A stretch of 64,000 nt of DNA from Candidatus Bathyarchaeota archaeon (GTDB lineage: Archaea; Thermoproteota; Bathyarchaeia; 40CM-2-53-6; RBG-13-38-9), in NCBI GenBank assembly GCA_963807605.1, contig CAWECG010000003.1:32001-96000 (forward strand), in the 5' to 3' direction. The translations under genes and the position numbers were made by a program. Below are positions 7,610-24,003 of the stretch, piece after piece (position 1 is the stretch's first letter; every line of letters begins with the position of its first letter). The notes beneath the pieces were generated by a model. The model was not told the origin of the DNA, searched no databases, and worked only from the letters and a program-made list of their open reading frames with translations.

Positions 7610-7685
7610 ACTTACACGTGTAATTTACACGTCGATTTCCAGACTTACACGATCCAGCTATAACGCCGTTATTCCCTATATCCCC
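7610..7685 (+). mobile_element. Casposon-like terminus remnant A1 (CACGT iterons ... CCTATATCCCC)
   Basis: About 85-90% identical by eye to 9310-9383 and 17710-17786. Abuts the core at 7686-7699. Confidence 0.7.
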
Positions 7686-7822
7686 TGTCCCTTGGTGAGC
7701 ACACCCCACACACACACACACACACACACACACACACACACACACACACACACACACACACACACACACACACACACACACACACACACACACACACACA
7801 CACACACACACACACACACACA
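7686..7822. repeat. Array site 2: core TGTCCCTTGGTGAG followed by (CA)58 (7707-7822)
   Basis: Read directly. Confidence 0.95.
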
Positions 7823-7865
7823 TAACCTGCTTAGCGCCCTTGTGGTAAAGAAGGTGTGGCGCTCT

Positions 7866-8633
7866 TTAGGTCAGAACTTTCTCTTGTATGAAGGCGCCGT
7901 GCCAGGTGTGGTACCATACCTGACCGGTGTAGCCGTTGACGCTTAACATTCCGTATATCTTGCCATCCTTGAGGACGTGCAGGGTATAGTATCCGTAGAA
8001 GGTTTCTGGTTCTTCTAGTGAGGCGCCTGGAAGGTTCGAGTCTAGGTAGGTTTGGGCTAGCTGCTTTGCATCTGTCTTTGTAACCGACATATTAGCTGTA
8101 GGCACTCCACTGTATGGTTGGTAGCCCCATCCACGGCCCATCATTCCTCCGCCTTGACTCCAGCCACCACCCATAGGGCCCCAACCGGCCATCTGTCCGT
8201 ACTTGGTGTTCCACATCATGCTTGGCCCTTGCTCTAGATGGATTATTCCCATCATCCCGCCCATTCCGCTTAGGCCGACTGCTTTCTCGATGATTCCTTC
8301 GAAGGCGTCGATCCCTGTGCTCTTCTCGTAGGCAATGAAGTAGTAGTTATACTGGAACTCCATGATCTCTTTGACGGCTAAGTCAGGGTATCCTAAGGAT
8401 GCTACCCAGATCTTCGCCACCTGTGCTGCCTCATTGATATTCCTTGGAATTGCCGGGTAGGGTTGGTAGGATCCTGTAGTTGGAGTTGGAAATGTTGGGA
8501 AGGGAGTCGTTTGCGCTGGAAATGTAGTTATCTGGCCTGTGTATGTTGGTGCCCATTGTACTGTTGAGAATGCGGCTAACCCTACGATGCCTATTATGAT
8601 TAGGACTACTCCAAGCAGGATCCTTCTGTTCAT
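7866..8633 (-). CDS. Secreted PepSY-like protein with Met/Gly-rich segment
   Basis: N-terminal TM, PSMMWNTKYG, FYGYYT, GMLSVNGYTGQVWYHTWHG. Confidence 0.75.
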   Translation of the reverse strand: MNRRILLGVVLIIIGIVGLAAFSTVQWAPTYTGQITTFPAQTTPFPTFPTPTTGSYQPYPAIPRNINEAAQVAKIWVASLGYPDLAVKEIMEFQYNYYFIAYEKSTGIDAFEGIIEKAVGLSGMGGMMGIIHLEQGPSMMWNTKYGQMAGWGPMGGGWSQGGGMMGRGWGYQPYSGVPTANMSVTKTDAKQLAQTYLDSNLPGASLEEPETFYGYYTLHVLKDGKIYGMLSVNGYTGQVWYHTWHGAFIQEKVLT

Positions 8634-8646
8634 TCTGTTGCTCCTC

Positions 8647-9039
8647 TTAGGAGAGTTCCTGCTTCATTCGTTCGTAGTCTTCTTTTGTTATCTCGCCCTT
8701 GGCATATCGTTCCTTTAGGATCTCAAGTGGTCTGTTGCTTGGTGCTGGACTCGCGGGTGCTGGTCTGCCTCCGCCTACGAGGTAGTAGATTCCAAACGCT
8801 ATCAGACCGATGAAGATCAGGAATACGATTATTCGGACGATTGCGCCGAGCCAGTTGAAGCCGTAACCATAGCCATATCCTCCATAGCCCATCATGCCAC
8901 CGTACCCACCGTTCGGGCCGTAGCCACCCATCATGCCTGGGCCCATAAAACCTCCTCCCATGAACATCAAGGGCCCTGCGAAGACTATTATCAAGATAAT
9001 GACTAGGAGGATGATCCAACCGCTGCTTCTATCGCTCAT
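8647..9039 (-). CDS. SHOCT-domain membrane protein with GMMG repeats
   Basis: Two TMs; C-terminal LEILKERYAKGEITKEDY. Confidence 0.85.
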   Translation of the reverse strand: MSDRSSGWIILLVIILIIVFAGPLMFMGGGFMGPGMMGGYGPNGGYGGMMGYGGYGYGYGFNWLGAIVRIIVFLIFIGLIAFGIYYLVGGGRPAPASPAPSNRPLEILKERYAKGEITKEDYERMKQELS

Positions 9040-9309
9040 ATGTTCATCTCAGTTTATTTTGTGTTCAAAGCTCGATAAAACCATGTTGTTCCTCATCGAG
9101 AAGGTTATTCCAAAGAACCCTTTTCTTACACACTATTTAGCAACATCCTGTATTTGTTGGACGCAGGGTATCACAGACTATTTAGGGAGTTTTCAGAATT
9201 TAGCCCACTTCGCCACCAAATCTAACCCAAATAGTGGCCCCGGAAGTCAAGCTGAATCATATTTCTTTCCAAGAAAACAGACTAACATGCATTTGGGATA
9301 CTAGCACAA

Positions 9310-9400
9310 TTACACGTGATATTTACACGTCGAATTTCAGACTTCCACGATCCAGCCATAACCCCGTTATTACCTATATCCCCATCACCGAGGGGCACAC
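9310..9400 (+). mobile_element. Casposon-like terminus A2 + array site 3 (core ATCACCGAGGGGCA, 9384-9397)
   Basis: GTTATTACCTATATCCCC directly followed by a core 11/14 identical to consensus. Confidence 0.7.
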
Positions 9401-9437
9401 AACTGTAATGGCTAGCTAAGGTTAAGGACGTTCGTAA

Positions 9438-21708: not shown

Positions 21709-21986
21709 GTATCAGAGTGATCAACGTGAAAGTAAAAGCGCTAAAAAGGCCCAACACACCCATCGCATATCCTTGATGATGAATAAAATCAGAATAACCT
21801 TCATCGTCGGCGCCCAATCAAATCACCCTACCGATAGCGAGTTTGCTTGATTCTCCCCCACCTCCCGTTTCAAAGGATATAAGATTTGTCAATGTTTTAC
21901 AACACTTCTTCATTGCTAAACGCAGTCTCCCATAGCAAGTCTCGTGTGCATAGGGCGGCGTGATTTCAAGGCGCGCGCTATTGATT

Positions 21987-22020
21987 GTGTGTGTGCCTTG
22001 CTGGTGAGCGACGACGACGA
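21987..22020 (-). repeat. Array site: (GT)n - CCTTGCTGGTGAG - (CGA)4
   Basis: Read directly. Confidence 0.9.
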
Positions 22021-22105
22021 AAAAAGATGTGCCTCGCTTCGCTTGGCAGATAATGAAAAGGAAAGTATGCAAGGAAGTTATGAAGAAAGGGAAAGACTGT
22101 TTTGG

Positions 22106-22606
22106 TTAGTCTCTTCTTCTCTTAACCACTACAACCGCGGATAATGCAGCGACTAGTCCTGCTAAGGTTAGGTAGGGTGTTAGAATCTCAAGCTTGTTAG
22201 TTGGTAGGGTGACTCCGCCCACAGGAAAAGTGACTGCATGGAGAATAATGTAATAGTTTTCTCCATTCAGATTGATGCCAAATGGACCCGGAGGGCCGAC
22301 CTGGCCGTAAACTTCGACTAGGTCTCCAACCTGAACATCAGCATAGCCCTGTTGTGGAAATGGAGGACTTACAACAAAGCCAACCTGAACGGTGCTGCCG
22401 ACCGTGAGGCTTCCTGAGCTATCAGAGATTATCTCAAGAATCTGGACATCCCACCAATGTGAACCGATGAGAATCCCCTGATTGGTGACCAAACCTCTGA
22501 TCTTAGCCTCTGTACCGTTAGCGGTAACTACAGGAATTATCGTACTCATAGCGGAGAGAACTAGCAGCATCATTACCGGTGCAAGAACTGAATAATTCTT
22601 ATTCAA
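22106..22606 (-). CDS. Secreted beta-rich protein with PVGG..NKLE-TM-KRRRD tail
   Basis: Signal peptide; tail near-identical to the gene at 1-868. Confidence 0.8.
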   Translation of the reverse strand: MNKNYSVLAPVMMLLVLSAMSTIIPVVTANGTEAKIRGLVTNQGILIGSHWWDVQILEIISDSSGSLTVGSTVQVGFVVSPPFPQQGYADVQVGDLVEVYGQVGPPGPFGINLNGENYYIILHAVTFPVGGVTLPTNKLEILTPYLTLAGLVAALSAVVVVKRRRD

Positions 22607-22893
22607 ACGTGTGCCTCTCTTAATATCATTCTCCGGTCCGCTATTAGTATTAAAACTTTCTAGGGGTATAGTACAAGCGCGCTACCATAGGCAAGATAGA
22701 AGCCTTCCAAAGCCTACAAATACGAAGCCTGGATGTTCCCTAACCATCAACAATTCGTGAACTACTGGAACTATGAGAGACCACACCAAGGAATAAGCTA
22801 TCTATATCCAGCACACGTCTATTTCAGAGACCTAAAGAAAGGAACACATGAGAGTAGCTAGAACAGATGATGTAGATGTCTTCGAGGTGACCT

Positions 22894-23736
22894 TTGTTAA
22901 GCAGGGATTCGCACTCGACTTCGGCAAAGACTGGTAATCCAGCTGAATCCAATCCCTCTAGGCCGATTACCTGGATGCACCTTGTGTCGTTTGCTCTTGC
23001 GACCGCGTTATCGTATGTCTTGGGCGTAGTCTCTTCCCTGTTCTTCCCCGTCTTGGGAGCCCCAGGTGTCACAGCGCTCTACGTTGCAGCCGCGATATAT
23101 GTTCCATTGGCAATTTGGATGGGTATGTGGGGGGTCCTCGCAGGCTATGTCAGCTGCTTTTTCTTGGGCTTGTGGCCAAGTGGATACTCTCCACTTCTAT
23201 CCTCGGTCTGGTCAGTAGCAGATTTCTTGGAAGCCTTGGTGCCACTGCTGTTCTTCAGGTTGCTCAGAGTAGACCCCGACTTTACGGTCAGGCGTCCCAC
23301 TGCAGCAAAATTATTCAGACCACTGGTAAGCATCGGGGTGGCGCTACTCGTCATCGGGATAATTGTGCAGATCTGCTTTGGCTCAATTTATGGTGAACCC
23401 TTTGTCTCAGTATACACGTACACCTTGTACACCGGCTTAGCGCTCTCAATAATTGGAATCTTAGTAGGCGCCTTCAAAGGCGACAAGAAAACATGGGCTA
23501 CGTATATCTTTTCAGGAATAATATCGGCCTCGGTTGTAAGTGGTATATGGGGTGGCTGGGCTTTGACTCTGATACCTGGCCTATCACCACTTCCAGCGGG
23601 CCTATTCCCCGTAGTCCTCACAGGATGGGTTGTCGGCGACATAATAGTACTGGCAGTAATAGCGACAGCACTACTGACCGCACTGACACCTATGATCAAA
23701 CGTTCACCCATATTTGTCAGACGCTGGTGGACTTAG
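22894..23736 (+). CDS. Multi-pass membrane protein (ECF S-component-like)
   Basis: About 8 TMs; GWVVGD motif near the C-terminus. Confidence 0.65.
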   Translation: MLSRDSHSTSAKTGNPAESNPSRPITWMHLVSFALATALSYVLGVVSSLFFPVLGAPGVTALYVAAAIYVPLAIWMGMWGVLAGYVSCFFLGLWPSGYSPLLSSVWSVADFLEALVPLLFFRLLRVDPDFTVRRPTAAKLFRPLVSIGVALLVIGIIVQICFGSIYGEPFVSVYTYTLYTGLALSIIGILVGAFKGDKKTWATYIFSGIISASVVSGIWGGWALTLIPGLSPLPAGLFPVVLTGWVVGDIIVLAVIATALLTALTPMIKRSPIFVRRWWT

Positions 23737-23783
23737 TTTCAGGTAAACCCCTTTTTTTCTTAAGATAGGAAAATACGAGCATA

Positions 23784-24003
23784 GTGTGTGTGCTCACCAG
23801 CTAGGGCAAACACACTAAACGAATGTCTCGCTCTCGGCTCGCCCTGAAGATTCAGGGGATTCTTCCCCTGACATGAACAGGAGGGATTCATGAACAGGAT
23901 AGGGATGGATTGTGTGTGGGTCTTTTGGTGAGGGGGATATAACATAACGCAGAGTTTTTGGTGTCCACGTGGCTATGCCTGATTGGACGTGGAAGTCCAC
24001 GTG
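23784..24003. mobile_element. Two array sites (23793-23806, 23919-23932) with a 112-bp insert, then casposon-like terminus A5 (GGGGATATA at 23933, opposite orientation)
   Basis: Read directly; CCACGTG iterons at 23965-24003. Confidence 0.75.

Follow-up and report, generated by a model that had tools for sequence, protein, structure and literature searches.

Five short, iteron-bearing modules between 7.6 and 24 kb of the window (the whole 64,000-nt stretch of DNA analysed here) are probably orphan, or solo, terminal repeats of casposons, the transposons that use a Cas1-type integrase. The resemblance to casposon ends, which a preliminary description had drawn, is now supported by a box that also serves the genome's one intact Cas1 element as target site duplication (TSD), by a predicted family-2-type casposase, by a casposase-contiguous, module-like end in a sister genome, by a tip common to complete casposons, and by casposon gene relics in the window. 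On this reading, casposon debris has piled up between housekeeping genes in the 7.6-24 kb region: solo ends accompany duplicated copies of the box, landing pads of pseudo-tRNA type, and relics of Cas1 and PolB.

The iteron modules and their inner border

All five modules reported in the preliminary description were recovered by reading the sequence, four on the plus strand and one on the minus strand.

7594..7601: (GC)4 patch at the inner border of the 7610 module (sequence read)
7610..7685, plus strand: module of subfamily 1 with three iterons, its tip CTATATCCCC running to 7685 (nhmmer E 2.8e-22)
9310..9383, plus strand: module of subfamily 1, orphan terminus (nhmmer E 2.8e-25)
17710..17786, plus strand: module of subfamily 1, orphan terminus (nhmmer E 6.7e-26)
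19816..19889, plus strand: module of subfamily 2, orphan terminus (nhmmer E 2.4e-19)
23933..24003, minus strand: inverted module of subfamily 2, orphan terminus (nhmmer E 3.9e-18)

Modules are 75-90 bp long, and the five window copies align across ~100 nt. The CACGT iterons described earlier are real: every window copy carries three, of the form [A/C/T]CA[C/T]G[T/A], in a register fixed relative to the tip (-72/-73, -59/-60 and -39/-40), and all five 3' ends read ..TTAT..(C/T)TATATCCCC, with the conserved tip CTATATCCCC. The division into two subfamilies likewise holds, with pairwise identities of 73-83% within subfamily 1 (the 7610, 9310 and 17710 copies), 59% between the two members of subfamily 2 (19816 and 23933), and 44-57% between subfamily 2 and subfamily 1. 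This repeat pattern is not a product of chance, as GTTATNNCCTATATCCCC has 3 exact matches against 0.30 expected even with 3 mismatches allowed. A profile search (nhmmer) found ~22 module copies genome-wide, the five window copies scoring E values of 4e-18 to 7e-26, and further copies occur in sister genomes, in genera g1, g2, g3 and g8 of the same taxonomic family, where they often lie at contig ends, as repeats do. Rfam and tandem-type matches were absent.

All 22 module copies in the genome are orphans. They have no common sequence beyond ~25 nt behind the first iteron, in agreement with the earlier remark that the element interiors are gone, and in many of them a GCGCGCGC patch cuts the copy off ~25 nt behind the iterons. 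The (GC)4 run that had been noted for the 7610 module lies just ahead of it, at 7594-7601. GC runs of at least 6 nt are found in 7 of the 22 copies. The run stands at the homologous inner border in five of these and cuts into the module in two (one across the iterons, one at the tip), and decayed versions stand at the inner border of several other copies. The tract beyond the inverted copy, described before as T-rich, is T/G-rich over 24004-24100. Most copies lose homology at a common point behind the iterons, which independent deletions do not predict and which tells against the solo-end reading.

The 14-bp box as the TSD of a Cas1 element

Each of the five window tips abuts, without a gap, the box that the preliminary description had called a core.

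7686..7699, minus strand: box in reverse orientation, adjoining the tip of the 7610 module (14 bp)
7707..7822, plus strand: (CA)58 microsatellite, at the position of the (CA)3-13 of sibling boxes
9384..9397, plus strand: degenerate box adjoining the tip of the 9310 module (14 bp)
11105..11320: micro-array in which four boxes cluster with T-loop units, same target/TSD family
17787..17823: box (17787-17800), (CGA) spacer and inverted box, a perfect 14-bp palindrome, then (CA)n
19890..19962, plus strand: box (19890-19903), 45-nt unit and second box, with a 59-nt period
23919..23932, minus strand: box adjoining the tip of the inverted module (14 bp)

Boxes start with C(T/G)CA followed by CCA, some beginning CGCA, and are preceded by a T-loop, GGTTCAAAT, at the exact spacing of a tRNA (5+7 nt, discriminator, CCA). 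Because ARAGORN called no tRNA gene within the window, these landing sites are pseudo-tRNA ends. The 45-nt unit of 19890..19962 is composed of (CA)n, an A-rich stretch, and a pseudo-tRNA T-loop and acceptor; box/T-loop micro-arrays follow 5 of the 22 modules, and more than 70 duplicated target boxes lie in the debris of the Bathyarchaeia lineage. A simple TSD gives direct repeats, so the palindromic box at 17787..17823 implies a later rearrangement. The (CA)58 tract is the longest of the genome's 7 CA/TG runs with at least 12 units.

The box is the 14/15-bp TSD of the genome's intact Cas1 element (C3:796420-805428), whose flanking 15-bp direct repeat is this same box. The tips of that element are inverted (CGA)n, not the iteron module, its right flank is a reverse T-loop unit, and PolB was not found within it. 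Its casposase is 402 aa long, with PF01867 over residues 48-299, and phmmer aligns residues 4-397 onto residues 21-407 of 6OPM, the Methanosarcina mazei casposase, with the C-terminal region included (E 5.7e-72). 6OPM is the best solved relative, CRISPR Cas1 proteins reaching only 4e-25 or weaker. The host genome encodes, in this protein, a Cas1 fold with a C-terminal helix-turn-helix extension, and its sequence identifies it as a casposase of the family 2 type.

Following a module tip, the box is forward in 8-9 genome copies, reverse in 10-11 and truncated in 2, whereas following a T-loop unit it always has one and the same orientation. As the box stands in both orientations after the tip, the module behaves as an element end rather than as a target-side flank. 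Copies in reverse orientation read landing site, box, tip, and the tip thereby takes the place that is occupied by the Cas1 element end in the same genome and by the TIRs of elements L055 and L065, which lie beside real tRNA 3' ends. Since the modules are orphaned, the second copy of each module's own duplication cannot be identified.

Casposon ends elsewhere and gene relics in the window

A module-like end that is still attached to a casposase gene occurs in a sister genome (G013:C43), where the order is casposase, a 230-aa gene, module-like end, box and reverse T-loop unit, with no other boundary between the casposase gene and the landing site. The casposase is full-length (398 aa, 47% identity), and the end aligns with the window copies over ~60 nt, its last iteron, spacer and tip resembling those of the 23933..24003 module; the second end of the element lies off the contig.

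Two complete elements of 9.4-9.9 kb, L058 and L065, were delimited in the present analysis on the Aenigmatarchaeota MAG contigs JACQNZ010000004 and JACPJT010000001. Each encodes Cas1 and PolB (48% identity between the two PolBs, that of L065 matching PF00136) and has TIRs of ~50 bp, with a tRNA 3' end as the insertion site and a TSD of 15 bp. The termini of both elements read ..ATCTATATCC(C) or ..CTATATATATCC(C), and in L058 as in L065 both TIRs terminate in the module tip, CTATATCC(C), the common stretch being only 10-12 nt long. Like the modules, these elements have the terminal motif ..(T)ATCTATATCC(C) adjoining a 15-bp TSD and are inserted at the 3' end of a tRNA, and the G013 casposase has 41-44% identity with theirs; unlike the modules, these elements retain both ends and PolB, and their subterminal sequence is unrelated and without CACGT iterons, although two subterminal direct repeats are present in L065.

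No inverted module pair was found around Cas1 in the host genome (G000) or at any of 45 Cas1 loci, paired copies bracketing cas1 and polB were not found for the iteron module family, and the host genome has no correctly oriented (-)...(+) pair within 60 kb. The preliminary description had named pairs around a DDE transposase or other non-Cas1 element as pointing away from casposons; the single correctly oriented pair found (G003:C309) carries two glycosyltransferase genes, with neither Cas1 nor a transposase. This pair joins two different subfamilies, and its flanking boxes, 12/14 identical, match each other no better than boxes do in general, so that it may consist of two unrelated solo ends. 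The module at locus L059 is separated from a Cas1 element only by the TSD and stands outside it, an arrangement that fits a neighbouring element and also fits a target-side feature.

Relics of two casposon genes lie in the window.

986..1375, plus strand: relic of a casposon-type family B polymerase (tblastn, L058 PolB query)
20883..21035, minus strand: Cas1 (casposase) relic covering residues ~305-355, with 47% identity to the intact casposase of the genome

The polymerase relic matches residues 611-727 of the L058 PolB at 33% identity (E 5e-14), is the only PolB-like sequence in the genome, and has a box fragment 10 nt upstream, at 967-976. No Cas1 gene was found behind any of the 22 module copies in the genome. 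TnpA and TnpB have no match in the window (4 TnpA and 40 TnpB matches in the genome), and 1 of the 22 modules lies less than 5 kb from a TnpB match, so the modules do not behave as IS200/IS605-type ends.

Proposed mechanism, alternatives and known systems

For solo casposon ends, we propose that the casposase would hold the module and that the 3' OH of the terminal C in ..CTATATCCCC would attack the 14-bp target box right behind a tRNA-like 3' end (T-loop GGTTCAAAT, 5+7 nt, ACCA). As the two strands would be attacked at staggered positions and the gaps then filled, the box would be duplicated, and each element end would consequently abut a box copy without a gap. The three phased CACGT iterons would most likely serve as binding sites, recognised either by the casposase through its C-terminal helix-turn-helix domain or by an accessory protein that the element encodes and that would position the tip. 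Interiors would later have been lost or replaced, leaving a ~115-bp unit often joined to unrelated DNA at GCGCGCGC.

It is rather unlikely that the modules are not dead relics but working parts of a Cas1-driven cassette-stacking system that forms integron-like or proto-CRISPR-like arrays. Module, 14-bp box and pseudo-tRNA pad would then move together and regenerate the target at each insertion, GCGCGCGC patches would join modules to arbitrary host or foreign genes, and the resulting arrays (leader-like solo-TIR, short repeat, insert, repeat) would build the accessory regions of Bathyarchaeia. Such stacking, if it occurs, would offer a present-day parallel to the route by which, as has been proposed, solo-TIRs led from casposons to CRISPR arrays.

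We consider a target-side role quite unlikely, with the module acting as a 'leader' for casposase recruitment or as a promoter reading across the box (CACGT operator plus TATA-like CTATAT), and Cas1 elements inserting beside it. Such a role would suit the L059 module, the discrete ~115-bp units with a common inner border, the micro-arrays that follow 5 of the 22 modules as repeats follow a leader, and the tip region, which appears TATA-like by the archaeal promoter consensus. However, boxes of either orientation occur after the tip, while the T-loop unit, the true target-side flank, keeps a fixed orientation, and the reverse copies carry a T-loop unit across the box, which would give each of these boxes two 'leaders'. 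Moreover, complete casposons have this tip at the ends of their TIRs, within the TSDs, and the G013:C43 module is contiguous with a casposase gene and cargo.

A second alternative, that the modules are ends of a non-Cas1 mobile element (a tyrosine integrase element or an unknown transposon) at the same tRNA-like site, strikes us as very unlikely. A minus-strand fragment at 17155-17592 that adjoins the 17710 copy is probably the C-terminal part of a tyrosine recombinase, an identity that we presume from our reading of the peptide, Pfam having given only a zinc ribbon. Integrase elements of M. mazei use the same tRNA-Leu target as casposons (PMC4779613), and 0 of the 22 copies have Cas1 behind them. 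A 14-bp duplicated box at the tip is nevertheless the signature of a casposase, whereas integrases give longer att repeats within the tRNA; the tip is common to casposons with Cas1 and PolB, the G013:C43 module is contiguous with a casposase gene, and the TnpA and TnpB matches, absent from the window and near a single module, also argue against this reading. It is extremely improbable that the modules are ordinary regulon promoter or operator DNA unrelated to mobile elements. Their CACGTG-like palindromes, in fixed register upstream of a TATA-like motif, do resemble transcription-factor sites, but the downstream gene is inconsistent (2 of 5 face the 3' end of convergent genes), the flanks are unrelated, relatives' copies often lie at contig ends, and fusion to the TSD box is seen without exception.

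The CRISPR adaptation machinery is proposed to descend from casposons, and CRISPR repeats to have been seeded by solo-TIRs. In some copies, the leader-like module followed by a 14-bp direct repeat with a 59-nt period resembles a CRISPR leader-repeat array, and the genome does encode a Cas1 family integrase. Unlike diverse spacers, however, the 45-nt inter-box units are mutually homologous pseudo-tRNA ends, and the boxes are inverted in places, which does not fit a CRISPR array of identical repeats and unrelated spacers. As solo casposon ends, the modules would represent abundant casposon debris in uncultured Bathyarchaeia, among accessory genes and at times in short periodic arrays, and a new type of TIR with phased iterons and a tip common across phyla. 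This reading would also explain a large family of puzzling intergenic repeats for annotation, and the module sequences could be used in integration assays on helix-turn-helix recognition by the casposase, which structural work left open.

In family 2 casposons, the 14-bp TSD begins with CGCA and overlaps the tRNA-Leu 3' end, ~30 bp of upstream tRNA sequence is required, and the ends finish in a 3' C (PMC4779613, PMC6977970). Casposons of this family leave solo-TIRs in M. mazei (Krupovic et al. 2016, PMC4779613), the only source from which solo-TIRs have been reported to date. The M. mazei casposase-DNA complex (Hickman et al. 2020, PMC6977970; 6OPM) is a full-length match to the genome's casposase. 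As for M. mazei, the target predicted here comprises the TSD and the ~30 bp of tRNA-like sequence upstream of it, and the predicted donor end finishes in C. Like the modules, the M. mazei solo-TIRs are single terminal repeats that stand at the target site without casposon genes, beside a conserved target motif (a 14-bp CGCA-type TSD at or near a tRNA 3' end), and tandem stacking at one site is seen both there and in the window debris. In contrast, the host here belongs to Bathyarchaeia, many copies stop at a GCGCGCGC patch, and the one Cas1 element that is intact in this genome carries microsatellites at its tips and lacks PolB. The repeats themselves are 75-90 bp with three phased CACGT iterons, compared with TIRs of 31-59 bp in M. 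mazei, and number ~22 solo ends in this genome, compared with one to three per M. mazei strain.

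Iteron modules in the window and across the genome

The preliminary description had placed five short modules in the window, and reading of the sequence locates each of them there, four on the plus strand (7610-7685, 9310-9383, 17710-17786 and 19816-19889) and one inverted (24003 to 23933). The five are mutually alignable over ~100 nt, and each carries three (A/C/T)CA(C/T)G(T/A) iterons in a register of -72, -59 and -39 from its end, which reads ..TTAT..CTATATCCCC or, in the inverted copy, TTATATCCCC. The proposed division into two subfamilies stands, with 73-83% identity among the left three copies and a looser right-hand group whose two members are 59% identical to each other and 44-57% identical to the first group. 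As described, a (GC)4 run precedes the 7610 copy, and the inverted one is adjoined by a tract, which is T/G-rich. In every module the junction between the tip and the abutting 14-bp core box is gapless.

A profile built from the five modules recovered 22 copies in the 2.65-Mb genome, with E-values down to 7e-26, and BLAST with one copy matched four genera of the same family, where the hits frequently lie at the ends of contigs, as is typical of repeats. An exact-pattern scan of the genome contig collection with the 18-nt tip returned only chance matches in unrelated bacteria; metagenome contigs yielded relatives only as fragments of low depth, and those among them that join a module-like piece to other flanks are too weak to use. 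Among most of the 22 genome copies, homology stops at one place, ~25 nt behind the first iteron. A GCGCGCGC run marks the inner border in five copies, decayed versions of it occur in several, and two further copies are cut by the run inside the module, one across the iterons and the other at the tip. Interiors deleted independently would not be expected to leave such a shared border; it may be that the solo unit itself was what was copied, or that the GCGCGCGC patch is the regular joint of a terminus with variable cargo. Patches of this kind lie at the inner borders or truncation points of many modules (window 7594-7601, C3:187153 and C3:647555, for example), and the 8-mer has 298 sites in this genome, counting overlapping matches.

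The box and its tRNA-like landing site

The box, with the consensus CTCACCAGCTAWGG or CTCACCAAGGGA.., has 74 or more occurrences in the genome; its flanks are simple repeats, (TG)n, (CGT)n or (GGT)n at one edge and (CA)n or (CGA)n at the opposite edge. Very often it is preceded, in constant orientation, by a ~23-nt unit with GGTTCAAAT. By reading, the distance from this T-loop-like motif to the ACCA in the box matches the spacing of a tRNA 3' half exactly, comprising 5 nt of T-stem, 7 nt of acceptor, the discriminator and CCA. Scans of the window for tRNAs (ARAGORN) and with Rfam found nothing, and because ARAGORN calls no tRNA there, we refer to these box-side tRNA-like units as pseudo-tRNA landing sites.

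The same box delimits a Cas1 element elsewhere in this genome. The single full-length Cas1 gene (402 aa, C3:803495-804700) has neither cas2 nor PolB beside it, and its product finds its best solved relative in 6OPM, the Methanosarcina mazei casposase (residues 4-397, E 5.7e-72), compared with 4e-25 or weaker for CRISPR Cas1 proteins; by this relation to 6OPM (PMC6977970) it is a predicted casposase. Proteins of the cargo near Cas1 are mostly without a Pfam match. The element, whose repeat-to-repeat length is 8,994 bp, lies between copies of a 15-bp direct repeat, which is the box, and has inverted (CGA)n tips; a reverse T-loop unit forms the right flank. Since the box is the direct repeat bounding a casposase-encoding element, it is a casposon target-site duplication (TSD) at a tRNA-like 3' end. 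Its behavior matches that of the published targets of family 2 casposons, in which the 14-bp TSD begins with CGCA and extends over the final bases of tRNA-Leu, ~30 bp of the tRNA upstream are needed and the donor end terminates in C (PMC4779613; PMC6977970). The CGCA start is seen here in some genome boxes and in the TSD of L059, one of the casposase loci that we fetched from other genomes.

Boxes and units also recur in tandem. At 11105-11320, at 19890-19962 and at many other genome sites, units with a ~59-nt period consist of the 14-bp box, (CA)n, an A-rich stretch and a pseudo-tRNA 3' half, and the last box is often followed downstream by a motif like GCTCGCTACGCTCGC, which corresponds to the subterminal part of the (CA)n-tipped casposon terminal inverted repeats (TIRs) at loci L045 and L044. 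At 17787-17823, two identical boxes stand head to head around CGACGACG; as a TSD should yield direct repeats, this arrangement implies that inversion or foldback followed the insertion. A perfect (CA)58 (7707-7822) comes immediately behind the box that abuts the 7610 tip, against (CA)3-13 at sibling boxes. Among the seven CA/TG runs of at least 12 units in the genome it is the longest, and several others are also at boxes (C4:17338, C1:520645).

Evidence for the modules as probable casposon ends

To obtain delimited elements for comparison, 45 loci encoding casposase relatives were fetched and searched for direct repeats with adjoining inverted repeats, which defined several complete elements. 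Two of these, from Aenigmatarchaeota (L058, 9.9 kb, and L065, 9.4 kb), combine a 15-bp TSD at a tRNA 3' end, ~50-bp TIRs, Cas1 and a family B polymerase; the polymerases are 48% identical, and PF00136 matches that of L065. The TIRs of these two finish in ..ATCTATATCC(C) and ..CTATATATATCC(C), which is the module tip, and a pair of subterminal direct repeats is present in L065. (CA)n or (CGA)n tips mark the other complete elements (L055, L045, L059 and that of the present genome); this accounts for the microsatellites at most boxes, as tips belonging to other casposon subfamilies. L055 (JAFGLT010000026, 8142-17183), a Cas1 element of 9 kb from another Bathyarchaeota MAG, is complete: its 65-bp TIRs are perfect and carry (CA)6 at their tips, and the ACCA that closes a genuine tRNA gene is part of its 14-bp TSD.

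The modules are probably orphan casposon termini, as had been suggested, a reading supported by box orientation, by landing-site position, by contiguity with a casposase gene and by the presence of the tip in complete casposons. Across the 22 copies, the box after the tip is forward in 8-9, reversed in 10-11 and truncated in 2. The two ends of an inserted element meet the TSD in opposite orientations, as a target flank would not, so the occurrence of both box orientations favors an element end. Reversed copies run in the order landing site, box, tip, which is the position of the Cas1 element end in this genome and of the TIRs at real tRNA ends in L055 and L065, again favoring an element end. 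On a contig of a sister genome (G013:C43, MEZD01000043), a full-length casposase gene, a small gene and a 230-aa gene are followed, 25 nt past the stop codon, by a module-like end in which one CCACGTGG iteron is clear, copies upstream of it are degenerate and the tip is CTATATCCCC. This tip abuts a reversed box and a reversed T-loop unit, no other boundary is present from the casposase gene onward, and the end can be aligned with the modules of the window, most closely with the inverted copy. Its contiguity with the casposase gene favors the modules being element ends, as does the tip that they have in common with L058 and L065.

It is unlikely that the module is instead a target-side leader or promoter. 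At L059, a module lies just outside the Cas1 element, across the TSD, which fits a target-side role and fits tandem insertion too, but the box follows the tip in both orientations, whereas the box that follows a T-loop unit is always forward. That the modules are the end of a different mobile element is less probable still; IS200/IS605 ends were rejected, as TnpA and TnpB copies exist in the genome but elsewhere. Plain regulatory DNA is highly improbable, given that no consistent gene lies downstream of the modules as a promoter regulon would have it. We also considered and rejected a tRNA-derived RNA gene, a C/D box RNA and REP/RAYT-like hairpins, and origin-recognition boxes, suggested by CCACGTGG dyads, were dropped in view of the 22 dispersed copies.

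Two relics of casposon genes lie in the window.
986-1375, plus strand, relic of a casposon-type family B polymerase (33% identity to residues 611-727 of the L058 PolB, E 5e-14)
20883-21035, minus strand, casposase C-terminal relic
The polymerase relic is the only PolB-like match in the genome to the casposon PolB queries used, and a box fragment (967-976) lies ten bases from it. Directly beside the casposase relic, a 153-nt segment (21043-21195) is repeated at 4009-4161 with 96% identity.

Module pairs, known counterparts and neighboring repeats

No complete element with an iteron module at both ends around Cas1 was found, and the genome holds no correctly oriented module pair within 60 kb. 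The 19816 and 24003 modules were rejected as one element, since their tips face each other and the intervening 4 kb is outside both. The sole correctly oriented pair, L087 in a sister genome (G003:C309, 18-3092), consists of inverted modules of two different subfamilies around 3 kb that hold two glycosyltransferase genes and a 64-aa zinc-ribbon gene; its flanking boxes are identical at 12 of 14 positions, about as alike as any two boxes. The pair may be a non-autonomous cassette or two unrelated solo ends. The 520 bp adjoining its left module recur in G013, with 93% identity behind a module of contig C12 and with 86% identity next to a Cas1 relic of G013:C9. The latter contig was rejected as a second locus with Cas1 and a module because a run of N interrupts it; its module (L035), with TTCAACGT iterons rather than CCACGT, has a short telomere-like CCCTAA-type run behind it (~8160-8200, minus strand). 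In another sister genome (L040, G001:C140, ~8600-8830), two modules stand tip to tip, with nothing between them but a pair of boxes around a single 45-nt T-loop unit.

The closest known counterpart is the set of casposon solo-TIRs, single terminal repeats, of M. mazei (PMC4779613). In the searchable literature we found casposon solo-TIRs only in that paper and a 2020 structure paper (PMC6977970), and no description of Bathyarchaeia casposons. Compared with the M. mazei repeats, those studied here differ in copy number, are longer and iteron-bearing, have a GC-patch border, occur alongside a polymerase-less Cas1 element with microsatellite tips and are in some cases adjoined by short periodic box/unit arrays.

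The modules neighbor ordinary chromosomal genes, namely those for a multicopper oxidase, an isochorismatase-family protein and membrane proteins as well as nadA, nadB and nadC. At the DNA level, the region is not collinear with any of four relatives, repeats alone matching. Divergent from the 17710 module is a 145-aa ORF (17155-17592, minus strand), in which a zinc ribbon, the only Pfam match, is joined to an N-terminal part resembling the catalytic-tyrosine (C-terminal) region of tyrosine recombinases. A 54-nt piece of this region is repeated, inverted, at 43336-43389. In a 215-nt inverted repeat of 90% identity (749-963 and 22011-22225), the second arm includes the part of a secreted protein gene that encodes the C-terminal membrane anchor; the segment has dozens of matches across all four relatives searched.
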